Part shown: one piece after another, positions 14,837-39,480 of the stretch
Numbering within the stretch: the stretch's first letter is position 1
Layout: every line of letters begins with the position of its first letter
From: a virus
Strand: one strand, 5' to 3'
IMG/VR virus record: IMGVR_UViG_3300027763_000027
Span: 64,001-128,000 of that record
Length of the DNA stretch: 64,000 bases
Translations under genes and position numbers: made by a program
The notes under the pieces: generated by a model
Database searches by the model: none
The model's input: the letters and a program-made list of their open reading frames with translations, nothing else
What the model was told of the DNA's origin: nothing

Positions 14837-15436
14837 CTATATAATATCATTATTTTGTAAACTTGTCAACTTATTTTTCAATAAAAGTTTACCTTTATCA
14901 TGTAAGTTGATTGCTGTTTGAGTGCTGATATTAAGAGTTTTACTTATTTTACTCCAAGAAGTTACTTTCTTACCATTAAAATATCTTAATTTAAATACTT
15001 TACATATTCTTTTGTCTTTTACTCTGTCTAAAATTGAAAATACTAAATCGGAGTTTTCTTTATTTATAATTAAATTATTTTCATATTTTATTTGATTATT
15101 TTCTATAATATGATTTATATTCTCGTTGTCCATGCTAATAGTATTGTTTTGTTTGTTTATACAGTTCAAGCAATAATATCTAGCTTGATTACCTAGCCAA
15201 GTCGAAAATTTTACATTCTTATCTGGATTAAAATTTAAAGCCGATTTATATATTACAAAAAGTTTATCATTAATAATATCATCTGGATTAGCCCCAAAAT
15301 CAATTAAATGTTTATAGTATTTTTTAACCATTTGATTAAAAATACCAGTATGACGATTCTCTAGTTCTTTTAATGCATCACTATTTGATTCTTTTTTTAC
15401 TTTATTTATTAGATCTATGTCTGGTATATAATTCAT
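14837..15436 (-). CDS. Phage sigma-70 family RNA polymerase sigma factor
   Basis: Region 2-like FNPDKNVKFSTWL; C-terminal HTH VFKLRYF...SWSKISKTLNISTQTAINLH. Confidence 0.8.
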   Translation of the reverse strand: MNYIPDIDLINKVKKESNSDALKELENRHTGIFNQMVKKYYKHLIDFGANPDDIINDKLFVIYKSALNFNPDKNVKFSTWLGNQARYYCLNCINKQNNTISMDNENINHIIENNQIKYENNLIINKENSDLVFSILDRVKDKRICKVFKLRYFNGKKVTSWSKISKTLNISTQTAINLHDKGKLLLKNKLTSLQNNDII

Positions 15437-20061: not shown

Positions 20062-21006
20062 TTACCAATAATATGTTTTATTTTTTGACCAATCAGGTAA
20101 AGGCACCGAACTCACTGGTATATTTGCTTCTGACCACCAAAGATATGAATCTTGATATAAAGGATAAGACGTATAAGTTAATCTATTTGTAAATCTATTT
20201 GTTGTAGTGCTTAATAAAGGAAGAAAAAGAGCATCAGTTAACTGCCCATCTAAGACCTTCCACCTTACAATACCAATACATCCAGGAATACCAGGTAAAG
20301 CTTGTGGTTGTACGTATTCAGGATATGCTCCAAAAATGGGGGTTCCATTTTCTTCATAGTCTATAATAAGATACTTTGTGCATTGTTTAGCGCCGTACCA
20401 ATCTCTATATGCATATAAGTCCAGAGTATTAGCTACATCCATAGAAATAGAAGTGTTAGGCGTAGTGGAGATATCTCCTCTTATTTGATTAATTTGATAT
20501 GGTGAAACTCCACCTAATCGGGTATTTGCTCCATTCCATCTTGCTCCTTTTGGTTCTGATTGGCTCCTTGGCCATGTATTTTGGCTAAAATTTATATTGA
20601 AATAATTATTGGAGAATACCCAAAGCCTATCCACATTCCTTCCACACAAATCATATATAAGCATATTATTATAATTAGACGCAATTTGATATGCTGATGG
20701 ATTATAATCAGGATCACCTATCGTAGGACAGCCATCGCCTTCGTCGGTGGTGCAATATGCACACTTGAATGGTGCTCCGTAGGACTCAATTCTTGGACAT
20801 ATTATTTGTTCATTAAAAGTAGGAGTTCCATAACTATACTGATTTCTCCATTCGGATCTTGGCCTACTCCCCATAAAATCTCCAATATATGTTCCATTTA
20901 CAACAACTTGAAAATTATTTGTGTAATCATAACCACAACGGCTCATATATAAACCATATACTGAACAACCATCAAGATAAGTCGCAAAGTTTGGGTTATA
21001 TGGCAT
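20062..21006 (-). CDS. Hypothetical, probable virion-associated protein
   Basis: 314-aa Y/G/N/C-rich ORF; GTGTAA-N8-ATG upstream; divergent from the mucin-like gene. Confidence 0.65.
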   Translation of the reverse strand: MPYNPNFATYLDGCSVYGLYMSRCGYDYTNNFQVVVNGTYIGDFMGSRPRSEWRNQYSYGTPTFNEQIICPRIESYGAPFKCAYCTTDEGDGCPTIGDPDYNPSAYQIASNYNNMLIYDLCGRNVDRLWVFSNNYFNINFSQNTWPRSQSEPKGARWNGANTRLGGVSPYQINQIRGDISTTPNTSISMDVANTLDLYAYRDWYGAKQCTKYLIIDYEENGTPIFGAYPEYVQPQALPGIPGCIGIVRWKVLDGQLTDALFLPLLSTTTNRFTNRLTYTSYPLYQDSYLWWSEANIPVSSVPLPDWSKNKTYYW

Positions 21007-21049
21007 TTAATTGATTACACTCTTTTATTTCTTGTGTAATACATAAATA

Positions 21050-23368
21050 ATGGACAATTACAACTGGGATAAAGATTTTGATAATTTTTTAGTAGGCTTG
21101 GAGTTTACTTGTGATGATTCGGCTTTTGCTGCCGCTGCCGCTCAATGGCGAAGTGACGAAAGATATGCCAAAAACCAACAATATAAATGCGGCGCTACCT
21201 TTTGGATATGCAACAATGGATCTTGTTGTACAGTGTGGTTTTGGCCATTTGCATGCTGCACACAAAAAGATGGAAGTAATATGCAACAGTCATGTACTAC
21301 TCTATCCCATTGTGATGGTACGTCAGAGCAAGTATGCATAGATTATGATGCTTGTGGTTGCGGAAGTTCAAATGCATGTTGCGGTAGAACGGATCCTCCA
21401 CTTAATACGGCTGCTCCAGTCAGGACGTTCGGGCCTATTAAACACGACACAGCTGGCCCAACAACATCTGGTCCAGTAGAGCCTCCAATTGGACCAACTC
21501 AACCTCCAGCAAACACAAGTGCTCCAGGATCTACAGGTGCTCCAGGATCTACAGGTGCTCCAGCTGCTACGGGTGCTCCAGCTGCTACGAGTGCTCCAAC
21601 TGGTACGAGTGCTCCAGTAAACACTACTTCTGCTCCAGTAAACACTACTTCTGCTCCAGTAAAGACTACTTCTGCTCCAGTAAACACTACTTCTGCTCCA
21701 GTAAAGACTACTTCTGCTCCAGTAAAGACTACTTCTGCTCCAGTAAAGACTACTTCTGCTCCAACTACCACAAACGCTCCTATTTTTATTCCAACTCCAG
21801 TTCAACCTCCAGTTGCTACTCTTGCTCCAGTCAGGACGTTTGCTCCAGTAAAGACTTCTGCTCCAGTTGTTACGAGTGCTCCAGTTGTTACTAGTGCTCC
21901 AGTTGTTACTAGTGCTCCAGTTGTTACAAGTGCTCCAGTAAAGACTTCTGCTCCAGTTGTTACAAGTGCTCCAGTAAAGACTTCTGCTCCAGTTGTTACG
22001 AGTGCTCCAGTTGTTACGAGTGCTCCAGTTGTTACGAGTGCTCCAGTTGTTACAAGTGCTCCAGTTGTTACTAGTGCTCCAGTAAAGACTTCTGCTCCAG
22101 TTGTTACAAGTGCTCCAGTTGTTACGAGTGCTCCAGGAACAAGTGCTCCAGGAACAGGTGCTCCAGTTGTTACGAGTGCTCCAGTTGTTACGAGTGCTCC
22201 AGTTGTTACTAGTGCTCCAGTTGTTACGAGTGCTCCAGTTGTTACAAGTGCTCCAGTTGTTACAAGTGCTCCAGTTGTTACTAGTGCTCCAGTTGTTACA
22301 AGTGCTCCAGTTGTTACAAGTGCTCCAGTTGTTACTAGTGCTCCAGTTGTTACGAGTGCTCCAGTTGTTACGAGTGCTCCAGTTGTTACAAGTGCTCCAG
22401 TTGTTACAAGTGCTCCAGTTGTTACTAGTGCTCCAGTTGTTACGAGTGCTCCAGTTGTTACAAGTGCTCCAGTTGTTACAAGTGCTCCAGTTGTTACTAG
22501 TGCTCCAGTTGTTACAAGTGCTCCAGTTGTTACAAGTGCTCCAGTTGTTACTAGTGCTCCAGTTGTTACGAGTGCTCCAGTTGTTACGAGTGCTCCAGTT
22601 GTTACGAGTGCTCCAGTAAAGACTTCTGCTCCAGTTGTTACAAGTGCTCCAGTTGTTACGAGTGCTCCAGGAACAAGTGCTCCAGGAACAGGTGCTCCAG
22701 GAACAAGTGCTCCAGGAACAAGTGCTCCAGGAACAGGCGCTCCAGGAACAGGAAGTGGATCAGGAACAGGCGCTCCAGGAACAGGAACAGGCGCTCCAGG
22801 AACAACAACAGGCGCTCCAGGAGGAGGAACAGGGGCTCCAGGAGGAACAGGTGCTCCAGGATCAGGAACAGGCGCTCCAGGAACAGGAACAGGCGCTCCA
22901 GGAGGAACAGGTGCTCCAGGAACAAGCGCTCCAAATACAAGTGCTCCAACAAGTGCGCCAACTTGCGCGCCAATTGATCCAAACACTTGTACCTGTGCTA
23001 GTAAGGGCGCATATGATGATATTATAAGTGCAGTAGCAGCATGTATTAATAGCGCGGGTAATATACTATGTCCATCATGCACAGGGTATAAGACTAATTT
23101 TTCATGCGGAGGTGGTCCAGGATGTCCTCCAAAAATAATAACCTGTTTTACTAAAGGATACCCTCAAGCTGGCCCTACCTGTTATGGAACGAGGTGTGTA
23201 TTTGCAGGTGGAAAATGCCGAGAGCAAAATACAGGGCAAACATGCTGTAAAAAAGCACAAACTCAAGATTGTCATTGCGCTCAAGGCTGCCCACAAGACC
23301 CACCTTGTGGGGATTGGGAAGTAATAACGGTAGATACTAATCTTCGAGATGGAGGATTTACGGCTTAA
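21050..23368 (+). CDS. Mucin-like Thr/Ser/Pro repeat protein with Cys-rich N- and C-terminal domains
   Basis: About 40 VVTSAP units plus V(N/K)TTSAP and GT(G/S)AP units between two Cys-rich domains; no signal peptide seen. Confidence 0.85.
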   Translation: MDNYNWDKDFDNFLVGLEFTCDDSAFAAAAAQWRSDERYAKNQQYKCGATFWICNNGSCCTVWFWPFACCTQKDGSNMQQSCTTLSHCDGTSEQVCIDYDACGCGSSNACCGRTDPPLNTAAPVRTFGPIKHDTAGPTTSGPVEPPIGPTQPPANTSAPGSTGAPGSTGAPAATGAPAATSAPTGTSAPVNTTSAPVNTTSAPVKTTSAPVNTTSAPVKTTSAPVKTTSAPVKTTSAPTTTNAPIFIPTPVQPPVATLAPVRTFAPVKTSAPVVTSAPVVTSAPVVTSAPVVTSAPVKTSAPVVTSAPVKTSAPVVTSAPVVTSAPVVTSAPVVTSAPVVTSAPVKTSAPVVTSAPVVTSAPGTSAPGTGAPVVTSAPVVTSAPVVTSAPVVTSAPVVTSAPVVTSAPVVTSAPVVTSAPVVTSAPVVTSAPVVTSAPVVTSAPVVTSAPVVTSAPVVTSAPVVTSAPVVTSAPVVTSAPVVTSAPVVTSAPVVTSAPVVTSAPVVTSAPVVTSAPVVTSAPVKTSAPVVTSAPVVTSAPGTSAPGTGAPGTSAPGTSAPGTGAPGTGSGSGTGAPGTGTGAPGTTTGAPGGGTGAPGGTGAPGSGTGAPGTGTGAPGGTGAPGTSAPNTSAPTSAPTCAPIDPNTCTCASKGAYDDIISAVAACINSAGNILCPSCTGYKTNFSCGGGPGCPPKIITCFTKGYPQAGPTCYGTRCVFAGGKCREQNTGQTCCKKAQTQDCHCAQGCPQDPPCGDWEVITVDTNLRDGGFTA
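21500..22960 (+). repeat. Coding minisatellite: 18-nt GCTCCAGTTGTTAC(G/T/A)AGT core with 21-nt and 15-nt variants
   Basis: Direct tandem repeats visible in the sequence; core copies differ almost only at the Thr wobble base. Confidence 0.95.
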
Positions 23369-23372
23369 TAAT

Positions 23373-23969
23373 ATGGAATATTTTTTTTTGATTGCAAATT
23401 CTAAAACATCCGATTCTGAAAAAATAATAGAAAAAATAAAAAAATTAAATACTCAAGAAAATTATAGTTTTGTTTTTTTTAATAGATTTATTAGAGATTT
23501 AAAAAATCCATTTTGGTTAAATTTTATAAAAACAAATACAAAATTTAAATTTTGGTTTGTTTCAAGAATGACCAATATTACTGATAATGGTTATCCAAAT
23601 AATAAAAAAAGCGCCTTGTGGGGTTTATATGGCGAAGAATGTATATGCTCAGGGAAACATAAATTAGATAAATATTTTGAAAAAATTTTAATTTTTGCCA
23701 GTGGACAATCAAATATATTCTACCATAACTGTCCAAATAATTTTTTTAAGAAAACTATTCATATAAATGACTATCAAAAAATAAATAATACAAATTTCAA
23801 AAATCCTTCTACTGGATTATTAACGTATTTATTTATCAAAAAATATTACCTAGAAAGTAGATTGCATTTAGTAGGTTTTGAGCATATAGGTTTAAAAGAC
23901 CACGAATTTGAGCTTGAAAAAGTTTATTTTGAATTAGAAAAACAAAATAATCCTAATTTAATTTTTTAA
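23373..23969 (+). CDS. GT29 (sialyltransferase-like) glycosyltransferase candidate
   Basis: FVFFN (L-like), PSTGLLTY...LVGF (sialylmotif S-like), HEFELE (VS, HxxxxE). Confidence 0.55.
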   Translation: MEYFFLIANSKTSDSEKIIEKIKKLNTQENYSFVFFNRFIRDLKNPFWLNFIKTNTKFKFWFVSRMTNITDNGYPNNKKSALWGLYGEECICSGKHKLDKYFEKILIFASGQSNIFYHNCPNNFFKKTIHINDYQKINNTNFKNPSTGLLTYLFIKKYYLESRLHLVGFEHIGLKDHEFELEKVYFELEKQNNPNLIF

Positions 23970-24979
23970 AAAATACTATTTATAGTTTTAATGAAGTAAG
24001 TTTTTTTAAATTTTCTTAAATTTGAAATCATCCAAGACAAATTGCCAGGATATCCAACAAATGTATCGACTTTAGATGCTATATATATAATCGCCATAAT
24101 TGTTAAAACATGATACTTTTCATCATGAGTATTTGTCTCTTTTAAAAATTCATGATGCTGTCCTCCATCAGCATTTGCACATAAAGGTAATTCTTCAAGT
24201 ACTTTAATATTTTTTTGTTTTTTTAATTCTAAAAATATTTCTTGATCGTCTGTTTGAGCAATTGTATTATTTTTATTATCTTTTAATATTTCAATTGCTT
24301 CTGATAATTCAGGGTACTTTAGCCCACAATAAGCCAATTCATAAGGATGATCTGTTCTTCTCCAATATATAAAATTAGAATTATTTAAGTTTATATTATA
24401 TTTTTTTATTATTTTATTTGCTCTATTTTTAACAGAATCAGTAAAGTTAAAATAACTTTTTAAAATAACTCTTATTAAATTAAAATCTAAATTATTTTTA
24501 TCACTCCCAATACCCCAGCAACCTAGTTGATTTTTTTCTAAAAATGAAAGAAGATATTTATTATCTATTTTTTTAAAATTATTGATCTGTTCTTTATTTA
24601 TATAAAGAATATTATCATATAAATTATAATTTTTATATAAATATAATTTCGTAGATATATTTTCTGGCACAATATTATAATAAGCTTTTAATTCTATCAA
24701 AAAATAAATTATAACAGAGCAATTTGATCCTATTCCAGCCCAACGGTGTAATGTAAATGTTTTATTTTTCTTTTCATATATATAATTATCAGTTGGATTT
24801 TTTGACACTTTAAATGTTATAGTGTCATTATCTTCAATTATTTCCTTAGTCATACCTTTGGGTAAAAGATTCATTTTATTGAAATTATTAATATTTTTTG
24901 AAGTTGATACCTTTTTTGGATGATTGTTTAATTTTTGCTCATACAAAATACGACGTTTTTCATTAAAATTATTTTTCAT
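23966..24979 (-). CDS. GT23/NodZ-like alpha-1,6-fucosyltransferase-type enzyme
   Basis: AGIGS, IYWRRTD (cf. HVRRTD), AQTDD, FVGYPGNLS. Confidence 0.65.
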   Translation of the reverse strand: MKNNFNEKRRILYEQKLNNHPKKVSTSKNINNFNKMNLLPKGMTKEIIEDNDTITFKVSKNPTDNYIYEKKNKTFTLHRWAGIGSNCSVIIYFLIELKAYYNIVPENISTKLYLYKNYNLYDNILYINKEQINNFKKIDNKYLLSFLEKNQLGCWGIGSDKNNLDFNLIRVILKSYFNFTDSVKNRANKIIKKYNINLNNSNFIYWRRTDHPYELAYCGLKYPELSEAIEILKDNKNNTIAQTDDQEIFLELKKQKNIKVLEELPLCANADGGQHHEFLKETNTHDEKYHVLTIMAIIYIASKVDTFVGYPGNLSWMISNLRKFKKTYFIKTINSIF

Positions 24980-25073
24980 TTATATTTGGCTAATTGCAGT
25001 TATACTTATATAATATAAAAAATATGCATAAATATCTAATTCTTTCTGGCATATTTGAATATAATGTATTATT

Positions 25074-26048
25074 ATGAAAAAAATTCGTATAACAACAAAC
25101 TGGAAGATTATACCAAATGATGAAGAGCTAATTAAAATAATAAAAAATTCATTTATTACAAAAAATAATTTTAATGAAAAATATATCTTGACTCACAAAA
25201 ATGATTTTGATTATTTAGTTATATTGAACAAATATCATCCTGATATTTTAAAATCCGACATAAAACCATATAAGACTATATTGTATTACAATGAACCATC
25301 TTGGCACGCATATATAACTGATAATATCAAAAAAAATTTAAAAATCGCTAAATATATTTGTTATCATGATTGTGATTTATTTAAAGTTTGGGATAGAAAT
25401 ATAGGCGATAAAGCTCTTTGTAAATTAGACATTAAAAATTATAAAAATAATTTCTTAAATATATCTGGACACTTGCCTCATTGGGTCGTAGATATAGAAA
25501 AAAATATAAATTTAGATTATTTAATTAAAAATAAATTTAAAAAAACAAAAAAATGCAGTTTTATAGTTTCTTCGAAAACTATGATAAAATCATTTGCAAT
25601 TAAAACTAACTCGGTCTACGAAGAAAGATTGCTCTTGGTAAAAGACATTTTAGATTCCAAGTTAGATATAGATGTGTATGGTAAAGGACTCATTGAAATT
25701 TTCGGGGAACACCCCAAGTTAAAGGGCGAAATAGATAATAAGCTAGAAGCTTTAAAAGACTATCAATTTTCAATTTGTATAGAAAATACTCAAGAAAATA
25801 ACTATTTTACAGAAAAGCTAACGGACTGTATACTAACGGACTCAACACCAATTTATATAGGCTGCCCGAATATAGATGATTATTTTAATAATATACATAA
25901 AGTAAACTTTGAAAATGCTATACAGAAAATTGAGAAAATTTTAAATAATAATTTAATTCTAGATCAAACAGAAAATAAAAAATTATTTGAATTTAAATAT
26001 AATCTATATACTCAAATTATTGATATAATAGAAAAATATAAAATATGA
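25074..26048 (+). CDS. GT10 alpha-1,3-fucosyltransferase-like protein
   Basis: IDVYGKG, YQFSICIENTQENNYFTEKL, PIYIG. Confidence 0.85.
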   Translation: MKKIRITTNWKIIPNDEELIKIIKNSFITKNNFNEKYILTHKNDFDYLVILNKYHPDILKSDIKPYKTILYYNEPSWHAYITDNIKKNLKIAKYICYHDCDLFKVWDRNIGDKALCKLDIKNYKNNFLNISGHLPHWVVDIEKNINLDYLIKNKFKKTKKCSFIVSSKTMIKSFAIKTNSVYEERLLLVKDILDSKLDIDVYGKGLIEIFGEHPKLKGEIDNKLEALKDYQFSICIENTQENNYFTEKLTDCILTDSTPIYIGCPNIDDYFNNIHKVNFENAIQKIEKILNNNLILDQTENKKLFEFKYNLYTQIIDIIEKYKI

Positions 26049-26956
26049 ATGATATTTTATACATAATTGTCCCATATTTTAATTTTTTAGATTGGGAATC
26101 TAATAAATTTAATTTAAACAATTTCTTGATAAAAAATAATTTTCCACCCAATGCTAGAGTAGTTTTAGTAGAAGGATATATTAATAATAAATTACCAGAT
26201 TATTCTGATAAGGTTTATAAACATCTTAAATTTAAGCTTAAAAATATGTTTTGGGCTAAGGAGAATTTAATTAATATAGCTATTAATAATCTACCAAAAG
26301 ACTGGAAATTTGTTGTGTGGATAGATAGAGATGTGGTTTTTCAAACCAAAACTTGGGTGAATGAAAGCATAGAAAAATTAAAAATTTCAGATGTGATACA
26401 GCCATGGAATAAATTATTTTATTTAGATAAAGCTAATAAAATACTATACCCAGATTATCCAAATTTAAGCATTTTCTATACAAAATTGAGCCCAGATTTT
26501 TACAACAGAAAGGGTCATTCTGGAATGGGATGGGGAATTAATAAAAATTTTTATAATAAAATTGGCAAAATCATAGATTGGCATATTATTGGTGGTGGAG
26601 ATGTATCTTTTGCATTTTGTTGTGGAATGCAAAATAAAGAAAGATTAAAAGAAATGCCATCAATTAGAACAGAAGGAATGCAAAGAGGAATTGTCAATTA
26701 TGCAAAACTTTTTGAAAACACAAATTACGATTATGTAAACGCAACAATTTATCATTATCCTCATGGTATCCAAGAAAATAGACAATATAAAACAAGATGG
26801 GATATTTTACATAATAACAACTTTGACCCATCTCAAGATATTTTTTATAATTCCGAAGGAGTATTAGAATTTTCTGAAGACTGGGCAAAAAAAGCCTCAA
26901 AACAGATAGAAGATTTTTTTACTCACAGAAAAGAAGACGATTACGAAACAATTTAA
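26045..26956 (+). CDS. Putative glycosyltransferase (GT-A, DxD)
   Basis: WAKENLINIA, WIDRDV, GHSGMGW, IIGGGD; paralogue of 28651-29709. Confidence 0.65.
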   Translation: MNDILYIIVPYFNFLDWESNKFNLNNFLIKNNFPPNARVVLVEGYINNKLPDYSDKVYKHLKFKLKNMFWAKENLINIAINNLPKDWKFVVWIDRDVVFQTKTWVNESIEKLKISDVIQPWNKLFYLDKANKILYPDYPNLSIFYTKLSPDFYNRKGHSGMGWGINKNFYNKIGKIIDWHIIGGGDVSFAFCCGMQNKERLKEMPSIRTEGMQRGIVNYAKLFENTNYDYVNATIYHYPHGIQENRQYKTRWDILHNNNFDPSQDIFYNSEGVLEFSEDWAKKASKQIEDFFTHRKEDDYETI

Positions 26957-26981
26957 GCTCCAATTTAGTGTAAATTGTAAG

Positions 26982-27914
26982 ATGAAAAATAAAGCAAAAA
27001 AAATACGAATCACTTGTAATTGGCAATCTATACCCAACGACAATTTATTAGTAAAGCTATTTAATAGTACTTATATTACAAATAATAATTTAAATAAAAA
27101 TTATATTATAACATCAGAAAATGAATTTGATTATTTAGTCATATTGGGCGGAACCAAAGATAGTTCTTTATATGAAAAAATAAATCCTTCAAAAATAATA
27201 AAAGCCTACATGGAGCCATCATGGAACCCATTAATAGAATTAGAATGCGCCTCAAATTTATTTAGAGCAAAATGGGTGCTCTATCACAAACCCGAATTAC
27301 TCGAAAAGCATTTAAAAGAAAACGTCCAAAAAAAAGAAATTTATTTTAAAAAAAACCCAGGAATGCTACCCCATAGCTTAGAAGATTTAAATTTTCATTT
27401 AAATAATAAATATCAAAAAAATAAAAAATGCAGCTTAATCCTTTCAACGAAATTAATAAAAGATAAATCGGAAACAATTTATAAAGAAAGAGTATCAATT
27501 TTATCAAAAATTTTAAAAAGCGATTTAGACATAGATATATACGGTCAAGGACTAGATAGGTTCAAACATAAGGATTCAAGAATAAAAGGCTATATACCAT
27601 TAAAATTAAACGCTTTAAAAGACTATCAATTTTCTATAGCAATGGAAAACACGATAGAAGATGGGTATTTCACAGAAAAATTAACGGATTGTATTCTATC
27701 TGACACAACTCCAATATATCTTGGTTGCAAAGATGTATTTAATTATTTTAATAATATACATGCGTTCGATCTAAACTCAAACCCAGTAGAGTATATAAAA
27801 AATATACTTGATAATAATTTAATTCTAGATCAAACAGAAAATAAAAAATTACTAGAATATAAATATAATTTTTATATTCAATTAATTAGTTTAATAGAAG
27901 AATATAATATATGA
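26982..27914 (+). CDS. GT10 alpha-1,3-fucosyltransferase-like protein (paralogue)
   Basis: IDIYGQG, YQFSIAMENTIEDGYFTEKL, PIYLG; GTGTAA-N8-ATG upstream. Confidence 0.85.
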   Translation: MKNKAKKIRITCNWQSIPNDNLLVKLFNSTYITNNNLNKNYIITSENEFDYLVILGGTKDSSLYEKINPSKIIKAYMEPSWNPLIELECASNLFRAKWVLYHKPELLEKHLKENVQKKEIYFKKNPGMLPHSLEDLNFHLNNKYQKNKKCSLILSTKLIKDKSETIYKERVSILSKILKSDLDIDIYGQGLDRFKHKDSRIKGYIPLKLNALKDYQFSIAMENTIEDGYFTEKLTDCILSDTTPIYLGCKDVFNYFNNIHAFDLNSNPVEYIKNILDNNLILDQTENKKLLEYKYNFYIQLISLIEEYNI

Positions 27915-28645
27915 TATCCGCAATTATAAGCTGCATGAATCGAACGGATAGATTAATTCCAATGTTACCCACTTGGACTGAAGTAGATAAAATTAAAGAT
28001 ATAGTAGTTTTAGATTGGAGTTCAAGAGAGCCAATTTCAGAAAATAAAGAAATACAAAAAATATTAAAAAATTCGAATAAAATCAAAATAGTAAGAGTTG
28101 ACGGACAAAAACACTTTCATTTAGGTAAATCCAATAATCTCGCTTACACATTTACAGATCCAAAAAATAAAATTTTATTGAAATTAGATGTGGATTACAT
28201 GAACATAAATAGCAAATGGATAGATTCTCTCGTTTACATTAATGGGTATTTAAAAAAATATTTTATTGTAGGTTCATATAAATTCTACAAAAGCTCCAAT
28301 GGTTTTTTATTAGTAAATAAACCTGAATTTGCAAAAGTTAAAGGGTATAATGAAAATCTATTATCGGCTTGGGGTTGGGATGATGTTGATTTACATAAAA
28401 GATTATCAGATCTTTTTTCTCACGATCCCTCTCATAGAAAAATAGAATTTTTTAATATTAAAGACTATATCTACCATATACCTCATGACGACGATTTGAG
28501 ATTAGAGAATTACCCAATAAAAATTAAAAGCGATCTTTTGAATAAATCTGAGGCAGATAAAGATAAAAACAAAAATTGGGTTTTTAAAAAAGTGAAAGTG
28601 CTCGAATCACGCGAATCATATCAAAGAATAATTCTAGAGGACTAA
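27911..28645 (+). CDS. GT2/GT7-like glycosyltransferase
   Basis: SCMNR, VVLDWSS, LDVD, GYNE...WGWDDVDL (cf. GT7 WGGEDDD). Confidence 0.75.
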   Translation: MISAIISCMNRTDRLIPMLPTWTEVDKIKDIVVLDWSSREPISENKEIQKILKNSNKIKIVRVDGQKHFHLGKSNNLAYTFTDPKNKILLKLDVDYMNINSKWIDSLVYINGYLKKYFIVGSYKFYKSSNGFLLVNKPEFAKVKGYNENLLSAWGWDDVDLHKRLSDLFSHDPSHRKIEFFNIKDYIYHIPHDDDLRLENYPIKIKSDLLNKSEADKDKNKNWVFKKVKVLESRESYQRIILED

Positions 28646-28650
28646 ATTAT

Positions 28651-29709
28651 ATGAACGATAATTTATATGTTATAATTCCTTATTTTAATTTTTATAAAAA
28701 TATTTACAGAATTTCAAATTTACTTAAAGTTTTGAGTTCTTTTAAAAATTCTAAAAATTTCTTAAAATGCAAAGTCTTCATCGCGGAAGCGTGCCACGAA
28801 GAAGTTCCAATAAATAAAAACGTTAAATGGAATGAAGATGATTCTTTTTTTGAGCTGGACGAAACAAACGCTCACGTCCCTCAAGTTATGGATTTTACTA
28901 GAAACTTAATGGATAAAAATTATGAAAAATTAAATAATATTTTTTTACAATTCATAGATAACAAAAATTATTTTCATGTAAAATACCAAATACCCCAAAA
29001 AATTTGGATTAAAGAAAATTTAATTAATCTAACAATTAAAGAACACTTACCTAAAGATTGGGAATATTTTTGCTGGATAGACGGAGATGTTATTTTTGAT
29101 AATGAAAATTGGATAAACGAAACAAAAGAGCTATTAAATCAGTTTGATATTATACAAATGTTTTCTACATGCTTTAACCAAATGAATTATAACAAAAAAA
29201 ACTATGTAGGGCACAATGGATATATCTATACCGAACGCAAAAAAGAAAACAATAATGATTCATTATTAAATAGTATGTTTATTACGCATATGGGATACGC
29301 ATGGGCCATGAATAGAAAATTGTATGAAAAAATAGAAAAACTATGGGAAGTTAATATCGTTGGCGCTGCAGATAGTGTTATCGCTAGATGCGCTATTCAA
29401 AAATTATCAGAAGAACAAATTTTAAACACTGAAGCATTAAATGTAATTTATTCTCCGAATTATGGTAAAAAACTTTTGGAATACTATTCAAAGTTTAAAG
29501 ATTGTAAATACGGCTTCTTAAATAATAACTTATTTCATATATATCATGGACAAATACAGAAAAGACAATATATGGTAAGACATAAAATTCTTCAAAAACA
29601 TGAATATGATGATTCTTTTCTAGAGCGTAATGAATTTGGAGTTTTATATTTAAAAAATGAGAGCCTTGAAAAAGAAATAGAGCAGTACTTAATACACAGA
29701 GAAAATTAA
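28651..29709 (+). CDS. Putative glycosyltransferase (GT-A, DxD)
   Basis: WIKENLIN, WIDGDV, HMGYAWA, IVGAAD; paralogue of 26045-26956. Confidence 0.65.
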   Translation: MNDNLYVIIPYFNFYKNIYRISNLLKVLSSFKNSKNFLKCKVFIAEACHEEVPINKNVKWNEDDSFFELDETNAHVPQVMDFTRNLMDKNYEKLNNIFLQFIDNKNYFHVKYQIPQKIWIKENLINLTIKEHLPKDWEYFCWIDGDVIFDNENWINETKELLNQFDIIQMFSTCFNQMNYNKKNYVGHNGYIYTERKKENNNDSLLNSMFITHMGYAWAMNRKLYEKIEKLWEVNIVGAADSVIARCAIQKLSEEQILNTEALNVIYSPNYGKKLLEYYSKFKDCKYGFLNNNLFHIYHGQIQKRQYMVRHKILQKHEYDDSFLERNEFGVLYLKNESLEKEIEQYLIHREN

Positions 29710-29807: not shown

Positions 29808-30128
29808 ATGAATAAAATTAAAATACTATTATCGATTGGACTAATTTTTGGTTCTTTAACGTTTGCTGACACAGGCTCAACAGTAGACCCGAATTTTATA
29901 GGTCCTCGTCTTGAGTCTAACTCAGTAGCAGATGGTTTTCTAGCTGCTGGAGATTTAGTATTTGTACGTCCAATCTCGACCGCGGCAACCATTGGTGCTT
30001 TTGGAATTTTTGCGATAGTGGCCCCATTCACAGAAATGGCTGGATGCACAGAGGAAACTTACGAAGGTCTTGTAGAAAAGACTGGAAAGTTTTCTTTTGA
30101 TCGTGATCTTGGCGACTTTAAAAAGTAA
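29808..30128 (+). CDS. Hypothetical exported/membrane protein
   Basis: Signal peptide plus DLVFVRP hydrophobic segment; TTGACG promoter upstream. Confidence 0.65.
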   Translation: MNKIKILLSIGLIFGSLTFADTGSTVDPNFIGPRLESNSVADGFLAAGDLVFVRPISTAATIGAFGIFAIVAPFTEMAGCTEETYEGLVEKTGKFSFDRDLGDFKK

Positions 30129-35668: not shown

Positions 35669-37867
35669 ATGAAATTACTAGAAAAACCAATCAATGTAGT
35701 CGAGTCCGATAGTTTTGAATCCGTAAGTTTTGGAATCAAGCAATCTGGACTTCCTTATATCTTCAACATCCTTCGCAATCAGTTGTATTCCAACAAACCT
35801 CTCGCAGTTTTGCGTGAGATTACTTGTAATGCACAAGACGCTAATATCGAAGCAAAGAGCAAGCGTCCTATTGAGATTAAACTTCCTACGAAGCTAGAAC
35901 CTACCTTAACTATCAGAGATTTTGGTAATGGTCTTTCTGCTGATGATATTAAGAATCTTTATTGTTATTATGGTGAATCTACCAAACGCAATAACAATTC
36001 TGCTATTGGATATTACGGCATCGGTAAATTCGCACCATTCAGTTATGGTGATAACTTTGTTTTGATTTCTTATCACGATGGCAAGAAAACTACTTACAAT
36101 GCTTTTATTGATGAAACTAAAATTGGTAAGATCGTTAAGCTCAAGGATGAAAAATCTTCCGAGCCTACTGGCGTTTTGATTTCTGTGCCAATCAAAGAAG
36201 AAGATACAGAAACCTTTTTGTCTACTGCTCAAGAATTATTTAAGTATTTCAAGAACAAGCCAATTATCAAAGGTGCAAGAAAAGAAGATTTGTCAGAAAT
36301 CTATGATCGCACACCAGTATTTAAAGGTAATGGTTGGGCTTATTATAATAACTCTGGCTATGGTAGAGAATCTGTTGCGATTATGGGAGTTGGTTATCCT
36401 ATCGAAACTAGCGATGTGCAATTCAAAGAAGATTCTGACGAGCAAAGTATTTGCTCTCAAGGATTTGAAGTAGAGTTTGAACTTGGCGAACTAGATATTA
36501 CTGCAAGCCGAGAGAATCTAGAATATACTGAAAAGACTAGAAAAGCTATTAGAGATAAATTCCGTAAAATCAAGAAAGAGATGGCAGAGTGCATCTCTCA
36601 ACAATTTAAAGATTCTACAAACATCTATGATGCCAAAGCTCTTTATAACGAAGTCTTTGGGACTTATGGCAGTTTGGGTTATATTGTTCGTAACGCTTTA
36701 AGCAACAAAGTGACTTGGAATAGCAAAACTATTACTGATAATCATATTGATTTCAATGATAAGATTGCGAAGATGATTGAGAATGGCAAATTGACTTCAA
36801 AGTTTTATCAGAAGTCTCGCAGAAGCACAAAATTAAATTCAGAGAATGAAGCCAAAAGGATTCTTTGCGAAAAGACACATAAAGTCCTAGTCAATGATAC
36901 TGGTTCAGCTATGGGAGTAACTCATCGTCTTGCTACTCTTTGGAATGAATTAGGAGACAAGATTGATGGTGCTTATGTATTTACATTCGTAGATCAAGCA
37001 ACGAAAGATACCTTTAACAAAGAACTTGGTATTGTTAATGAGAATTATTTGAATCTTTCTGATTATGAGAAGATTACTATTCAGAAGATCAACTCTGGAA
37101 CTAGCGTTGTAACCAGTAAGAATCCAAAACATTCTTCTCAAATCTTTAAGTTTAAGCGTAAAGACGCTACGAATTGGGGAACAAATTCTAATAATTGGGA
37201 GACTATGGCTATGGATTTAGCTAATGATACTGCTATCTATGTGGAGATCAGTAACTTCCAAGCCCAAGGCAAGGAACACGAATTTAGAAATGGGACTCTA
37301 AAAGATATTCTTGAGAAGTATGAAGAACTTACTGGCGAGAAACTTCCAGAGATTTATGGAATCAAATCTAAAACTTTTGAAGCCAAGAAAAAGATTATTA
37401 CTAAAAATAAAAATCTTACAAGCCTCTGGAAATATCTTGAAGATGGAATCCGCAAGGAGTATTCTAAACTATCACAGCAAATCACAGACAAGAACCATTG
37501 GGATAAGCACAATGGAGAAGATAATGGTTTTGCTGATCTTGTTCAAAATCTCCACAAGAAAGAACTACACGAACTTATTGAAAATCAAAATTCAGAGTTT
37601 GCACAATACTTGAGTGCGATTATGTTCTATGCGAAATCGAACTTTAAGAAGGTTGGCGAAGCTCTTGGGTTTTTAAAATTGGCTGAAATTGATATTAAAT
37701 TCGATCAAGTCAATCCAACTTATAATTTGGATACTCTCTTAAAGAATATCCAAAGCAAATATGAAATACTCGATGTATTTATGCCTCATACTTCTATGTG
37801 GCAGATTAGCGAGAAGAAACAAATGACAAGGATTGTAAATTACATAAATGTCATTGACAAAAACTAA
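35669..37867 (+). CDS. rIIA: rIIA-like protein (N-terminal GHKL ATPase)
   Basis: LYSNKPLAVLREITCNAQDA, IRDFGNGLS, ESTKR, IGYYGIG, ITASRENL; upstream of rIIB-like gene. Confidence 0.85.
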   Translation: MKLLEKPINVVESDSFESVSFGIKQSGLPYIFNILRNQLYSNKPLAVLREITCNAQDANIEAKSKRPIEIKLPTKLEPTLTIRDFGNGLSADDIKNLYCYYGESTKRNNNSAIGYYGIGKFAPFSYGDNFVLISYHDGKKTTYNAFIDETKIGKIVKLKDEKSSEPTGVLISVPIKEEDTETFLSTAQELFKYFKNKPIIKGARKEDLSEIYDRTPVFKGNGWAYYNNSGYGRESVAIMGVGYPIETSDVQFKEDSDEQSICSQGFEVEFELGELDITASRENLEYTEKTRKAIRDKFRKIKKEMAECISQQFKDSTNIYDAKALYNEVFGTYGSLGYIVRNALSNKVTWNSKTITDNHIDFNDKIAKMIENGKLTSKFYQKSRRSTKLNSENEAKRILCEKTHKVLVNDTGSAMGVTHRLATLWNELGDKIDGAYVFTFVDQATKDTFNKELGIVNENYLNLSDYEKITIQKINSGTSVVTSKNPKHSSQIFKFKRKDATNWGTNSNNWETMAMDLANDTAIYVEISNFQAQGKEHEFRNGTLKDILEKYEELTGEKLPEIYGIKSKTFEAKKKIITKNKNLTSLWKYLEDGIRKEYSKLSQQITDKNHWDKHNGEDNGFADLVQNLHKKELHELIENQNSEFAQYLSAIMFYAKSNFKKVGEALGFLKLAEIDIKFDQVNPTYNLDTLLKNIQSKYEILDVFMPHTSMWQISEKKQMTRIVNYINVIDKN

Positions 37868-37889: not shown

Positions 37890-38807
37890 ATGAAAATACC
37901 ATATATATTAACAGATCGTAGTCTTACTATCGTTCTTAACGATGAGCCAAAGACTATCACTAGCGAAAATCCAGTTTGGAATGACGCTATCACCGCAATC
38001 AGAGAAGGAAGGTTTAGCGATCTTCCAGATATTCTCGACAAGAGCAAAGCTATTGCACGATTCTCTCACGGCAAGATTGAAGTCCGTGATGGTCTTGTGA
38101 CTTATGCTGGCGAAGAAATTCATAATATTGTTGTAGATAGAATCTTAAACTTTATTAAGAATGGTTTGCCTTATGAGCCTCTTGTTAAGTTTCTTGATAA
38201 GCTAATGGCAAATCCTTCTCGTAGAGCAGTTAATGAACTCTACAAATTCTTGGAGCATAAAAAAATGCCTCTCACACCAGATGGCGATTTCCTTGCATAT
38301 AAGAGTGTTAGAGCAGATTTTACTGATTGGTATAGTGGCAAACATAATTTTGCTATCGGCCAAGTCCGTGAGATGGCAAGAAATCAAGTTTGCGATAATG
38401 CAGATGTTGGTTGTTCTGCTGGTTATCACGCTGGCTCAGAAGAATATGCAAAAAGTTTTAATGGTGGTGGTAATCTTGTGATAGTTAAGATTAACCCTGC
38501 TGATGTTGTATCTGTTCCAACAGATTGTGAATGTCAGAAACTTCGTGCATCTAAACTAGAAGTTGTTGCACTATATCGTAAATCTCTTGACAAAGAACTT
38601 TATGATATTGCTTATGGAAACTTTATTCATCCATATAGTCCAGAAGCTCAAGAAGCTATGCAAGAAATGTATGATGTAGACCCCGATGGCGAATACGATG
38701 ATGAAGATGAGGAAGATGATGTTCCTAGTTGGGGAACTGATGGCACACTTAAAGCGAATTATCACAATAAGCGTGACCCTCATACTGGAAGGTTTATTAA
38801 GGGATAA
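37890..38807 (+). CDS. rIIB: rIIB-like protein
   Basis: NPSRRAVNELYKFL, TPDGDFLAYK, CSAGYH, VKINPADVVSVPTD. Confidence 0.85.
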   Translation: MKIPYILTDRSLTIVLNDEPKTITSENPVWNDAITAIREGRFSDLPDILDKSKAIARFSHGKIEVRDGLVTYAGEEIHNIVVDRILNFIKNGLPYEPLVKFLDKLMANPSRRAVNELYKFLEHKKMPLTPDGDFLAYKSVRADFTDWYSGKHNFAIGQVREMARNQVCDNADVGCSAGYHAGSEEYAKSFNGGGNLVIVKINPADVVSVPTDCECQKLRASKLEVVALYRKSLDKELYDIAYGNFIHPYSPEAQEAMQEMYDVDPDGEYDDEDEEDDVPSWGTDGTLKANYHNKRDPHTGRFIKG

Positions 38808-39049
38808 TGAAGTTAGGTTTGCACATTGATTGGTGCATAGGGAGATGGTTTGGTAGGAACAATAATCTTGAGATTAGAGTTACCCTACCGACCATCTCTC
38901 TCGGTTATAAACAAGAAGATGATGATAAATGGTTTGGATTTAAATTCAATTTAAGGACAGACATATCATTTGAATCATACGAATATGGAAAAATATTTAC
39001 CTTGATTTTATTTGGATTTGGAGTTAAAGTAAGCAAGTTTAATTTATGA
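38807..39049 (+). CDS. Hypothetical protein
   Basis: ORF coupled to the rIIB stop. Confidence 0.55.
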   Translation: MKLGLHIDWCIGRWFGRNNNLEIRVTLPTISLGYKQEDDDKWFGFKFNLRTDISFESYEYGKIFTLILFGFGVKVSKFNL

Positions 39050-39240
39050 GTGAAGAAGATAATTTTAATTGTAAAGCTGGAAATCAGTTGAGAGATACTT
39101 TATATAAAGATATATTAAGATATGCTCACGAAAGCGATATGACAGCTTATCAAGTAATTGGCGTTTTAGAATCATTGAAATTTGATTTATTAAATGCTAT
39201 GAGAAATGTTGATGAAGGAGGAGATGAAGATGAAATCTAA
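39046..39240 (+). CDS. Hypothetical protein
   Basis: Overlapping ORF in operon. Confidence 0.6.
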   Translation: MSEEDNFNCKAGNQLRDTLYKDILRYAHESDMTAYQVIGVLESLKFDLLNAMRNVDEGGDEDEI

Positions 39241-39436
39241 TCGTGGTCGTAAAAAAGGTTCGTTTTGTTTTTCAATGGTAACATTGAGTGAACTTAATAA
39301 AGTATTGAAGCAAGATGCAGTAGTTATCGTATCAAAGAAATTCCTCGACAATTTAAATATAAAAGGAATTGAAAAGGAAGTCAATACTAAAACCTATAAT
39401 AGTTTAGAGCAACCTATTGATTTTCAAGTAGTTTAA
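39230..39436 (+). CDS. Small basic protein with RGRKKGS motif
   Basis: AT-hook-like N terminus. Confidence 0.55.
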   Translation: MKSNRGRKKGSFCFSMVTLSELNKVLKQDAVVIVSKKFLDNLNIKGIEKEVNTKTYNSLEQPIDFQVV

Positions 39437-39480
39437 ACAAACTTCTTGATTAGAATTTAAAACCCATATATAAAGGTTCT

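Follow-up and report, generated by a model that had tools for sequence, protein, structure and literature searches.

A freshwater phage that probably sugar-coats its own mucin-like protein inside the host cell

Introduction

Giant viruses, as exemplified by the fibrils of Mimivirus and the Vp54 protein of chloroviruses, use a viral nucleotide-sugar pathway and many glycosyltransferases (GTs) to build their own glycan coat without the host secretory machinery. The phage described here likewise carries many GTs and a predicted nucleotide-sugar pathway of its own, but giant viruses are eukaryotic viruses with other acceptors, whereas the present virus is a tailed bacteriophage whose candidate acceptor is a mucin-like protein with tandem repeats. 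As in the secreted mucins of animals, a PTS tandem-repeat stalk lies between Cys-rich ends, but a signal peptide and a secretory pathway are lacking. The enzyme families match the classical tool kit of Lewis/sialyl-Lewis synthesis (GT7, GT10, GT11, and GT29), with the GT29 membership of one enzyme (o206) not established.

Among phages, virion glycosylation has been reported for the mycobacteriophages Che8, Corndog, and Myrna (Freeman et al. 2023, cited in PMC12619734 and PMC12691614). As related in these citing papers, the glycans are located on the C-termini of capsid and tail-tube subunits, one to a few GTs are encoded in the structural operon, and soluble GTs encoded by the phage presumably act on its proteins within the host cytoplasm, yielding a glycan-bearing particle. 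A similar arrangement is predicted here, but a distinct protein of 772 aa, with mucin architecture and Cys-rich ends, is the candidate acceptor, and the enzymes are of fucosyl-, sialyl-, and Gal-type, plus a GT60-type enzyme and a prolyl-4-hydroxylase (P4H)-type oxygenase.

GT60 enzymes initiate the mucin-type O-glycans of protists and, after a dedicated P4H, the cytosolic hydroxyproline-linked glycans of Skp1 (PMC8724618). The phage set resembles the Skp1 pathway in the P4H-type oxygenase adjoining a soluble GT60-type GlcNAc-transferase, the presumed cytosolic location and elongation by Gal and Fuc, and the presence of multi-domain enzyme fusions. It differs in that the candidate acceptor sites number in the hundreds and lie in the repeats of a phage protein, in place of the one Pro of Skp1, and in the fusion of the GT60-type enzyme to an O-FucT domain; the Skp1 pathway, in turn, lacks the GT10, FUT8-like, and sialyltransferase-fold enzymes of the phage.

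Sets of Gmd, GDP-fucose-type enzymes, and GT10-like genes are also found in aquatic cyanophages (e.g. P-SSM2 and S-SSM7), in which no mucin-like ORF or GT60/P4H pairing has been reported and which are usually read as modifying the host surface; the genes for Gmd and GDP-fucose in T4-like cyanophages have been treated as auxiliary genes of host metabolism (PMC10611076). Our literature search found no paper describing the pairing of a mucin-like protein with GTs in a phage.

Materials and methods

The source is an uncultured freshwater phage with a genome of 172 kb, and the window is the whole stretch of 64,000 nucleotides analysed. The related set comprised 59 loci and the genomes of four large relatives (77-87% complete). 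Families were assigned using Pfam cut-offs (23.9 bits for PF00852, GT10; 23 bits for PF02709, GT7C), and NCBIfam, PHROG, and PDB were also searched. Folds were assigned by comparing predicted models (pLDDT) with known structures (VIA Z).

Results and discussion

The mucin-like protein

The mucin-like ORF is divided into the following segments.
21050-23368, plus strand: mucin-like ORF, 772 aa
21050-21382, plus strand: N-terminal Cys-rich end (residues 1-111, 14 Cys)
21383-22963, plus strand: stalk (residues 112-638)
22964-23368, plus strand: C-terminal Cys-rich end and stop codon (residues 639-772, 18 Cys)

The protein consists of two disulfide-type Cys-rich globular ends spaced by a long extended Thr/Ser/Ala/Pro stalk. 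Its 32 Cys residues lie in residues 21-111 (14) and 639-753 (18), and the 527-residue stalk, measured from the last N-terminal to the first C-terminal Cys, is composed of T (19%), V (18%), P (18%), A (17%), S (13%), and G (9%), with 169 Ser/Thr and 93 Pro. Eighty units with an AP end, 61 TSAP, and 39 exact VVTSAP were counted, and Tandem Repeats Finder identified an 18-bp unit with 46.4 copies and 88% matches, although copy numbers of repeats in a short-read metagenome assembly may be inexact. Since the GC3 of the ORF (0.11-0.30) matches that of the rest of the phage despite a total GC of 0.42-0.50, the plus frame is the coding one. Codon usage is that of the phage itself, and the ORF is a real gene of this phage, encoding a protein of mucin architecture.

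Neither a signal peptide nor a TM segment was found in a Kyte-Doolittle scan, and the N-terminus is acidic. These features agree with the earlier note, which had described a 772-aa protein with Cys-rich ends, a Thr/Ser/Pro stalk of about 40 VVTSAP units, and no signal peptide. Homolog searches with the N-terminal Cys-rich end were empty, the C-terminal end had no match among 1.84 billion representatives, PDB, and viral contigs, and the ends share no sequence homology with mucin D, CK, or SEA domains. PHROG and Pfam matches of the protein were repeat-driven only.

Enzymes adjoining the mucin gene

The mucin gene is flanked by a divergent orphan and seven genes that had all been proposed to encode GTs.
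20062-21006, minus strand: o314, a 314-aa orphan divergent from the mucin gene
23349-23969, plus strand: o206, putative sialyltransferase-fold enzyme (predicted model and invariant residues)
23966-24979, minus strand: o337, putative GT-B FUT8/POFUT/NodZ-like enzyme (predicted model, fold match)
25074-26048, plus strand: GT10a, alpha-1,3/4-fucosyltransferase family (PF00852, E 2.1e-8, 34.5 bits)
26045-26956, plus strand: o303, GT-A-like by its WIDRD motif only, paralog of o352
26982-27914, plus strand: GT10b, alpha-1,3/4-fucosyltransferase family (PF00852, E 1.5e-9, 38.2 bits; alpha-1,3-FucT motif)
27911-28645, plus strand: GT7C/GT2-type GT-A enzyme, galactosyltransferase-like (PF02709, E 5.5e-6, 26.4 bits)
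28651-29709, plus strand: o352, paralog of o303, WIDGD motif (read by eye)

Five of the seven have support as GTs, and all of the island GTs are soluble, with no TM segments. Both GT10 genes and the GT2/GT7-like enzyme proposed earlier score above the Pfam cut-offs. GT10a carries the alpha-1,3-FucT motif ENT..Y.TEK and is 48% identical to GT10b, homologs of which are present in T4-like cyanophages; homologs of the GT7C/GT2-type enzyme occur at eight related loci. The model of o337 (pLDDT 78) gave VIA Z scores of 14.5 to FUT8, 12.9 to POFUT1, 12.8 to AtFUT1, 12.7 to POFUT2, and 12.0 to NodZ (next fold, 7.7), W206, R207, and D210 are invariant, and its Atlas neighbours bear NodZ/FUT8/O-FucT. Its previous assignment as NodZ/GT23-like is thus supported at the level of fold, as a predicted fucosyltransferase-superfamily GT-B.

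For o206 (pLDDT 82.6), the Z scores to Cst-I (9.9), Cst-II (9.5), ST6GalNAc2 (9.1), MptE (9.1), and Maf (7.8), with unrelated folds at about 5, and the invariant residues P153, S154, G156, and H185 support a sialyltransferase-type fold at moderate Z. Of the earlier 'GT29-like' label, the fold stands (Z 9-10); GT29 membership, to which an Atlas lead points, is not established. Because the mucin stop codon overlaps the o206 start, or precedes an alternative ATG (23373) by 4 nt, the two genes are predicted to form one transcription unit.

The 'two further DxD enzymes', o303 and o352, are paralogs (28% identity) with no family match in Pfam, NCBIfam, PHROG, or PDB, and their proposed GT nature comes down to a WxDxD-type motif read by eye. 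Homologs of o303 occur in three relatives, and o352 shares 31% identity with a protein of Xanthomonas phage XaC1 annotated as hypothetical. No match to o314 was found in the same four databases or in the 59 related loci.

A start-proximal motif shared with virion genes

The GTGTAA motif noted previously upstream of the mucin gene and one GT10 gene was located at both, and also before o314.
21015-21020, minus strand: GTGTAA, 14 nt before the o314 start
21034-21039, plus strand: GTGTAA, 16 nt before the start codon of the mucin gene
26968-26973, plus strand: GTGTAA, 14 nt upstream of the GT10b start
14837-15436, minus strand: sigma-factor-like protein, candidate GTGTAA reader (Sigma70_r2 E 1.4e-4, below the cut-off)

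In the genome, 23 of 60 copies are sense-oriented and lie 10-30 nt 5' of start codons (median for hexamers of the same composition, 1), and the motif is kept in four relatives, suggesting a phage-specific, promoter-like element. The sigma-factor-like protein, conserved in four relatives, may read it. Besides the three genes above, GTGTAA precedes a third GT10 gene, the gene of a GT60-type protein, and the tape measure, portal-position, 461-aa PT-stalk, and BppL-type fibre genes. It also precedes nrdB in four genomes and is therefore not exclusive to structural genes. The 461-aa PT-stalk protein, encoded directly after the capsid gene, matches the Pfam 'PT disordered repeat' family; its orthologs in relatives consist of the N domain only (~115 aa).

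Distribution among relatives

The mucin gene, o314, o206, o337, and both island GT10 genes were found in none of the 59 related loci and none of the four large relatives' genomes. They make up strain-specific cargo in a hypervariable island, which lies between purA and UvdE and is a recombination hot spot holding 158 unrelated protein clusters in relatives. The adjacency of the mucin gene and the GTs consequently carries less weight, as the genes may have been inserted independently. Relatives encode other Cys-rich, Pro/Thr/Ser-rich proteins under GTGTAA, one in the purA-side island and some in tail modules (982 aa with FG-GAP/TIG domains; 1416 aa).

In another reading, the protein is glycosylated by the phage enzymes but does not belong to the particle; lysis would release it as a soluble, mucin-like polymer that could, for instance, form a matrix or act as a decoy against lectin-type receptors, grazers, or rival phages. 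This would fit the strain specificity, which is common among accessory genes, the lack of homology to virion proteins, the position outside the structural modules, and the Cys-rich ends, which suggest an extracellular life. We regard it as improbable, given the motif shared by the mucin gene and virion genes, the analogous proteins in the tail modules of relatives, and the absence of a secretion signal.

Other sugar and modification genes

Three further genes proposed elsewhere in the window exceeded the Pfam cut-offs.
7316-8221, minus strand: polysaccharide pyruvyl transferase (PF04230, E 1.7e-9)
45368-46108, plus strand: GT11, alpha-1,2-fucosyltransferase family (PF01531, 26.2 bits; cut-off 23.9)
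54891-55442, plus strand: FkbM-type methyltransferase (PF05050, 24.8 bits; cut-off 22.7)

The matches behind the proposed 'GT4' and 'GT92-like' genes fell below threshold. The genome contains at least 15 GT genes, and also encodes Gmd (E 7e-102), two SDR enzymes, and one NDP-sugar dehydrogenase, together a predicted GDP-6-deoxyhexose pathway of the phage's own. An HtrL/YibB-like gene is also present. A 1020-aa protein matches PF11397 (GT60 type, E 5.7e-32) and O-FucT (E 3e-20), and adjoins a 2OG-FeII_Oxy_3 oxygenase of the P4H type (E 1.3e-19); GT60, O-FucT, and P4H are families that we consider known only from protein glycosylation. The pair lies 43 kb from the mucin gene and was not found in the four large, incomplete relatives. 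The genome contains no lipid-carrier or export genes (Bac_transf, WecA-type, Wzx, or Wzy/ligase).

These genes also allow a reading in which the island GTs and the Gmd pathway fucosylate or otherwise change LPS, capsule, or S-layer glycans of the infected host, for superinfection exclusion or to keep progeny off debris, and the mucin-like protein is an unglycosylated, flexible spacer that neighbours them by chance. GT10/GT11-type fucosyltransferases with a Gal-transferase-like enzyme form the bacterial Lewis-antigen LPS set of Helicobacter pylori, HtrL/YibB-like and pyruvyl-transferase genes are typical of polysaccharide loci, and cargo genes have a hot spot in the island. In addition, T4-like cyanophages bear GT10 homologs and Gmd without mucin-like genes (PMC10611076). 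Such remodelling would, however, lean wholly on host intermediates, since its genome supplies neither a priming transferase nor a flippase, polymerase, or ligase of the phage's own; moreover, protein-directed families are present, and the mucin gene shares a predicted transcript with one GT and GTGTAA with others. Gmd with P4H/GT60, the lack of export genes, the shared motif, and the Cys/Pro-rich proteins of relatives favour a protein as the target, and we consider host-surface remodelling unlikely, although a serious contender.

Glycosylation of modified bases in the phage DNA is very improbable: no thymidylate-synthase-type hydroxymethylase is encoded in the genome, and to our knowledge none of the assigned families (GT10, GT11, FUT8/POFUT-like, GT60 type, and sialyltransferase fold) acts on DNA. 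It is suggested by the frequent action of phage GTs on DNA (PMC12619734).

The stalk could also be an unmodified, protease-resistant spacer, comparable to the PT linkers found in secreted enzymes, placed beside GTs with unrelated targets by an accident of the hot spot, as the orphan status and the hypervariable island would allow. Many PT linkers have no known glycosylation, and Pfam includes the 'PT disordered repeat' family matched by the 461-aa protein. Nevertheless, it would be a remarkable coincidence for 169 Ser/Thr in regular units to occur in a phage with at least 15 GT genes and a GT60-type initiator, and the mucin gene is coupled to o206 by start and stop; we hold a plain linker to be quite improbable.

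Proposed mechanism

The earlier note had proposed cytoplasmic, phage-encoded O-glycosylation of a virion appendage. The GDP-6-deoxyhexose pathway, the P4H/GT60 pair under GTGTAA, the soluble GTs with no lipid-linked export genes encoded, and the predicted co-transcription of the mucin gene with o206 strengthen this proposal, whereas the orphan gene set in a recombination hot spot and the two 'GTs' without a family weaken it. It remains our preferred reading, held tentatively at a confidence just short of even. The 772-aa protein would be made in the host cytoplasm with the virion proteins, from a GTGTAA-type phage promoter, and its stalk O-glycosylated there by soluble phage enzymes. The initiator would most likely be the GT60-type enzyme, as a polypeptide alpha-GlcNAc-transferase acting on Thr, or on hydroxyproline formed by the adjoining oxygenase at the 80 Ala-Pro sites. 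Chains may then be elongated and capped by the GT7C-type enzyme, the two GT10 enzymes, the FUT8/POFUT-like enzyme, and the sialyltransferase-fold enzyme, the last probably using a host CMP-ulosonic acid, with fucose or another GDP-6-deoxyhexose supplied by the Gmd pathway. Once complete, the glycoprotein would have its role extracellularly, most likely forming a fibre or hair of the phage particle.

Mucin-like protein

The hypervariable interval between purA and UvdE (hereafter, the island) carries the gene for a mucin-like protein and seven neighbour genes. The ORFs considered here are positioned in the window as follows.

20062-21006 (minus strand), o314, upstream of the mucin gene
21050-23368 (plus strand), mucin gene
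23349-23969 (plus strand), o206, predicted sialyltransferase-type fold
23966-24979 (minus strand), o337, predicted fucosyltransferase-type fold
25074-26048, GT10a, predicted fucosyltransferase
26045-26956, o303, candidate GT-A enzyme
26982-27914, GT10b, predicted fucosyltransferase
27911-28645, predicted GT7C/GT2-type enzyme
28651-29709, o352, candidate GT-A enzyme and paralog of o303

The mucin gene product comprises 772 residues, with 14 Cys within residues 21-111, 18 Cys within residues 639-753, and a stalk of 527 residues between these Cys-rich ends. The stalk is composed of T (19%), V (18%), P (18%), A (17%), S (13%), and G (9%), with P, T, and S accounting for 50%; in being long, built of tandem repeats, and rich in these three residues, it resembles the repeat domain of mucins. 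It contains 80 units, each with an Ala-Pro end, i.e. 39 exact VVTSAP units, 5 VKTSAP units, seven V[KN]TTSAP units, and a Gly-rich GT(G/S)AP series; at the DNA level, an 18-bp unit is present in 46 copies with 88% matches. The earlier note had described the Cys-rich ends, the Thr/Ser/Pro composition, about 40 VVTSAP units, and the lack of a signal peptide correctly, and had put the length of the stalk at ~480 residues. Neither a signal peptide nor a TM segment was identified, so that the secretory entry typical of mucins is missing, and the ends have no homology to mucin D, CK, or SEA domains or to any other protein found. As judged from its sequence, the protein is mucin-like in architecture only.

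The GC content of the mucin gene (0.42-0.50) is high because of its amino-acid composition, and its GC3 (0.11-0.30) is in the range of the other genes of the phage. The low GC3 indicates that the plus frame is the coding frame. A recent foreign origin of the gene was rejected because its GC3 is as low as elsewhere in the genome, and a 426-aa minus-strand ORF within the repeats was dismissed as a by-product of the repeat.

For the N-terminal end, a word-indexed search that covered 5.8 billion proteins and was restricted to near lengths gave no relative, and a single 30-aa match in the viral-contig scan, located on a high-GC contig, was judged spurious. The C-terminal end yielded nothing in the viral-contig scan, in an exhaustive HMMER search of 1.84 billion representatives, or in PDB. 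A degenerate DNA pattern for VVTSAPVVTSAPVVT matched two viral contigs, both of which are unrelated, high in GC, and without a PTS ORF.

The abundance of Cys suggests that the protein functions outside the reducing cytoplasm; given the lack of a secretion signal, it would then be located on the particle or set free at lysis. The second of these, a released glycoprotein that is not part of the virion, we consider improbable, as several genes for virion-type proteins share an upstream motif with the mucin gene (see below).

The phage and its GTGTAA motif

The source record is a 171,916-bp IMG/VR virus rated complete by CheckV, of which the window represents bases 64001-128000. The virus is a tailed phage with genes for a large terminase (TerL), a 2028-aa tape measure protein, a family-B DNA polymerase, a DnaB-type helicase, and BppL-type fibre proteins, and its capsid gene has a weak capsid-family match only. 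Its GC content is ~0.29. No DNA-level match was found among GenBank phages, and the identity of TerL to its counterparts in deposited phages does not exceed 25%. The k-mer matches were to freshwater and lake metagenomes, and two freshwater DNA sequencing runs contain 0.97 and 0.62 of the k-mer words, the former run possibly being the source sample; the remaining runs, including one RNA run at 0.11, hold small shares that count as no evidence. The tmRNA gene (window 6338-6725, minus strand) has a predicted tag peptide ending in ETASVA, which is unusual compared with the common ALAA ending (ARAGORN).

In total, 60 copies of the phage-specific motif GTGTAA were identified on both strands of the genome, 23 of which are in the sense orientation and followed by a start codon 10-30 nt downstream; for the 89 alternative hexamers of identical composition, the number of copies at such sites has a median of 1 and reaches at most 7. 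The motif precedes virion-type genes, namely those for the tape measure protein, a 514-aa head-region protein, a PT-stalk protein after the capsid, a BppL-type fibre protein, and a 1692-aa PA14/GLEYA/LamG protein, and the gene located after TerL. On the glycosylation side, it precedes the genes for a GT60 protein, a third GT10 copy, and o314, together with the mucin gene and GT10b, which agrees with the earlier observation that the mucin gene and one GT10 share it. GTGTAA and several of its positions are conserved in four large relatives. It is also present 16 nt before the ribonucleotide reductase small-subunit gene nrdB (window 9669-10733, minus strand), here and in the related genomes G001-G003 (four genomes), indicating a phage-specific promoter class that is not restricted to structural genes.

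Two more stalk proteins, of 461 and 1374 aa, are encoded by this phage. The 461-aa protein (genome 153372-154757), encoded directly after the capsid gene, consists of an N domain, ~220 aa of T-A-P-T repeats, and a C domain, whereas its orthologs in G001 (36039-36413), G002 (132784-133131), and G003 (621-965) consist of the ~115-aa N domain only; the stalk and distal domain are, from this comparison, additions in this strain. The 1374-aa protein has a TSAP patch and a Cys-rich end, which showed no significant BLASTP similarity to the C-terminal end of the mucin-like protein. In the four large relatives, other Cys-rich, Pro/Thr/Ser-rich proteins are encoded, mostly under GTGTAA. Among these, a 982-aa protein of the tail module combines FG-GAP and TIG domains with a 60-residue polyproline run and a Cys-rich end, and another tail-module protein, of 1416 aa, contains (TP)n linkers. 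A further family comprises small Cys-rich proteins that contain SPPSPP runs, and one of its members is encoded inside the same purA-side island. Four small Cys-rich proteins of G003 (27000-28774 and 80670-81464), with extensin-like SPPSPP or polyproline runs, have a common T-N-C-V-G-G-G ... P-P-E tail and no family match. The 1692-aa protein (window 737-5815, minus strand, with GTGTAA upstream) contains PA14, GLEYA, and LamG-type lectin domains, two of each, and probably serves as a fibre or adhesin that binds carbohydrates; the best-known occurrence of GLEYA domains is in adhesins of yeasts.

Genes following the mucin gene

The start of o206 lies within the last codons of the mucin gene, and an alternative ATG at 23373, which is the start used by most homologs, lies 4 nt past the mucin stop. 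This arrangement leaves no space for a promoter or terminator between the two genes and thus argues for one shared transcript. The AlphaFold model of o206 (pLDDT 82.6) aligned best with Campylobacter Cst-I (VIA structural-alignment score Z, 9.9), Cst-II (9.5), and human ST6GalNAc2 (9.1), followed by the archaeal MptE kinase (9.1), ST8SiaIII (8.0), and the flagellin glycosyltransferase Maf (7.8), with unrelated folds at ~5. As the kinase and the transferases tie in Z, the fold leaves the function of o206 unfixed. A P-S-T-G stretch resembling sialyl motif S and one His are invariant among 11 homologs, and PF00777 is carried by only 15-30% of the members of the Atlas look-alike clusters. The model thus suggests a sialyltransferase-type fold, at moderate Z (9-10), to which the earlier designation 'GT29-like' may apply; the sequence matched neither Glyco_transf_29 nor any Pfam family at E up to 10.

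The model of o337 (pLDDT 78) matched FUT8 (Z 14.5, rmsd 4.9, 231 aligned residues), POFUT1 (12.9), AtFUT1 (12.8), POFUT2 (12.7), and NodZ (12.0), the next fold after the fucosyltransferase GT-B group scoring only 7.7. W206, R207, and D210 (W-R-x-x-D) are invariant across nine homologs and represent a nucleotide-sugar motif of the R-x-D type; the role of the conserved Arg in this motif is known from FUT8 and POFUT1. By its predicted fold, o337 is a member of the fucosyltransferase GT-B superfamily (GT11/23/37/65/68), without placement in a family inside it. The former assignment as 'GT23/NodZ-like' holds at the superfamily level, but no NodZ or FUT8 profile, no Pfam family at E up to 10, and no PDB sequence matched o337. 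Neither o206 nor o337 has a protein-level match in GenBank phages. The Atlas look-alikes of o337 include a giant-virus cluster in which 2OG-Fe(II) oxygenase domains are fused to a FUT8-like domain, a fusion that echoes the pairing of a P4H with a GT in this phage (see below).

GT10a and GT10b matched Glyco_transf_10 with 34.5 and 38.2 bits, respectively (curated cut-off, 23.9), and contain the alpha-1,3-FucT motif as YQFSICIENTQENNYFTEK and YQFSIAMENTIEDGYFTEK, respectively; we take this motif to be F/Y-x-h-x-h-E-N-x(5)-Y-x-T-E-K. They are paralogs with 48% identity and, as previously proposed, belong to CAZy family GT10, with predicted alpha-1,3/4-fucosyltransferase activity. The third GT10 copy is located at genome 5063-5992 (29 bits).

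The product of the ORF at 27911-28645 matched PF02709 (Glyco_transf_7C) with 26.4 bits (cut-off, 23) and Glyco_tranf_2_2 below the cut-off, has an invariant DxD (D93 and D95), and has no PDB sequence match. It is predicted to be a GT-A, Gal-transferase-like enzyme, for which GT7, GT27, and GT2 are not separable, in line with its earlier description as 'GT2/GT7-like'. The paralogs o303 and o352, reported before as 'two further DxD enzymes', do have an invariant W-x-D-x-D (W92, D94, and D96), which by itself would suggest GT-A enzymes, but no family was matched in Pfam, NCBIfam, PHROGs, or PDB, or by hhalign to the GT7-like family. A hypothetical protein of the 349-kb Xanthomonas phage XaC1, 31% identical to o352, is the only cultured-phage relative of the o352 family. 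Overall, the data support a glycosyltransferase assignment for five of the seven neighbours of the mucin gene, and no membrane segment was found in any of the island GTs.

Sugar supply and protein-directed enzymes

GT11, a pyruvyl transferase, and an FkbM-type methyltransferase are encoded in the window, as noted earlier. Outside the window, the region at genome 49-57.5 kb encodes GDP-mannose 4,6-dehydratase (Gmd; E 7e-102), two SDR epimerase/reductases, an NDP-sugar dehydrogenase, an HtrL/YibB-like protein, and GT1-family enzymes. For one SDR epimerase/dehydratase (genome 49061-50119, minus strand), the Pfam match begins at residue 1 of a 353-codon open frame, whereas the first ATG/GTG/TTG yields only 240 aa; either an error in the sequence determination or the use of a non-canonical start codon could account for this. 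No nucleotidyl-transferase or CMP-sugar synthetase was found in the phage genome.

For cyanophages, such Gmd/GT sets are usually assumed to remodel host surface glycans (PMC10611076), and the same explanation, the main rival here, is possible for the present gene set, although we regard it as rather unlikely. The phage genome yielded no polyprenyl-phosphate priming transferase (Bac_transf/WecA type), Wzx flippase, Wzy polymerase, or ligase in searches whose controls were positive in most reference genomes. Modification of DNA by these enzymes is very hard to credit; no thymidylate-synthase-type hydroxymethylase was found in the genome. The following gene pair bears on the choice between surface glycans and proteins as targets.

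Genome 38467-42825 (outside the window), GT60-type gene and adjoining P4H gene

The first gene (genome 38467-41529) encodes a 1020-aa multi-domain GT that matched PF11397, the GT60-type polypeptide/hydroxyproline GlcNAc-transferase family (E 5.7e-32; 112 bits vs 21), and PF10250, the protein O-fucosyltransferase family (E 3e-20); the second encodes a P4H-type 2OG-Fe(II) oxygenase (PF13640, E 1.3e-19). The phage thus has families known only from protein glycosylation. GT60 enzymes initiate mucin-type O-glycans in protists, and in the cytosolic Hyp-linked GlcNAc-Gal-Fuc glycan of Skp1, the GT60 start follows a dedicated prolyl hydroxylase; the enzymes of the Skp1 pathway are all soluble and often fused (PMC8724618).

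Distribution of the island

Using UvdE, just downstream of the island, as bait, 59 related loci were obtained, 45 of which have the purA and UvdE flanks. Their intervals are 1.5-9 kb in length, compared with 11.2 kb in this phage (window 19307-30468), and contain 158 protein clusters, including BspA-type LRR proteins, DUF6065, GT1 enzymes, a TylF-type sugar methyltransferase, and a flavodoxin-like reductase. The mucin ends, o314, o206, o337, and the GT10 pair were found in none of the 59 loci, and homologs of o303, o352, or the GT7-like enzyme in few. The absence of the set and the variability of the interval suggest that the mucin gene and its GT genes are strain-specific cargo of a recombination hot spot. 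A small protein at the right edge of the island (window 29808-30128), the N-terminus of which resembles a signal peptide and which contains a second hydrophobic segment, is kept in 41 of the 59 relatives and has a near-consensus sigma-70 promoter; host-type sigma-70 promoters were located upstream of the ORF o106 and of UvdE.

For the synteny comparison that the earlier note had proposed, single-protein scans with GT10a and o314 gave no relatives, and profile scans with the o206 and o337 families gave nothing in viral or metagenome contigs. The longest contigs with homologs of the two families have the same sizes (7909 and 9530 bp), and nothing else pointed to linkage. The orphan status of the gene set, which leaves no relatives for a co-variation test, is a decisive weakness of the glycosylation reading given below. 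A plain linker beside GT genes by accident of gene order would be compatible with such an orphan, and appears quite improbable to us given the transcript that the mucin gene and o206 would share.

Possible glycosylation of the stalk

The reading that we favour, tentatively and at close to even chances, is that the stalk is O-glycosylated in the cytoplasm by phage enzymes and that the product works extracellularly, probably on the virion. Either the GT60/P4H module or the GT7C-type enzyme would initiate the glycans, which the fucosyl- and sialyl-type enzymes of the island would then elongate and cap. A bolder version, which we think doubtful, is that this tailed phage builds a true viral mucin, with GT60/P4H starting hundreds of O-glycans on the stalk and a strain-specific cassette (the Gal-T-like enzyme, GT10, the FUT8/POFUT-like enzyme, and the sialyltransferase-fold enzyme) adding fucosylated, ulosonic-acid-capped (Lewis-like) chains to form a glycan hair on the particle. 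The composition of this hair would then differ between closely related strains because the cassette lies in a recombination hot spot.

Virion glycosylation on the C-termini of capsid and tail-tube proteins is an established precedent in mycobacteriophages (Freeman et al. 2023, as cited in PMC12619734 and PMC12691614), and full-text literature searches returned no account of a mucin-like carrier protein in a phage that is accompanied by a comparable set of enzymes. If host surfaces were the target, the gene set would be one more ordinary case of phages remodelling host surface sugars. If the stalk is instead glycosylated by the phage, virion glycosylation would extend beyond the one established case, the mycobacteriophages, to a dedicated mucin-like carrier with a eukaryote-like tool kit (P4H, GT60, GT10/11, and a sialyltransferase fold) that operates without a secretory pathway. 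It would also provide a compact, soluble, and genetically linked enzyme set for producing mucin-type and fucosylated glycoproteins in bacteria, and a system in which to ask how glycan coats serve environmental phages, for example in adsorption, protection, or avoiding non-host binding, with a virus surface glycan that would vary at the strain level through cassette exchange.
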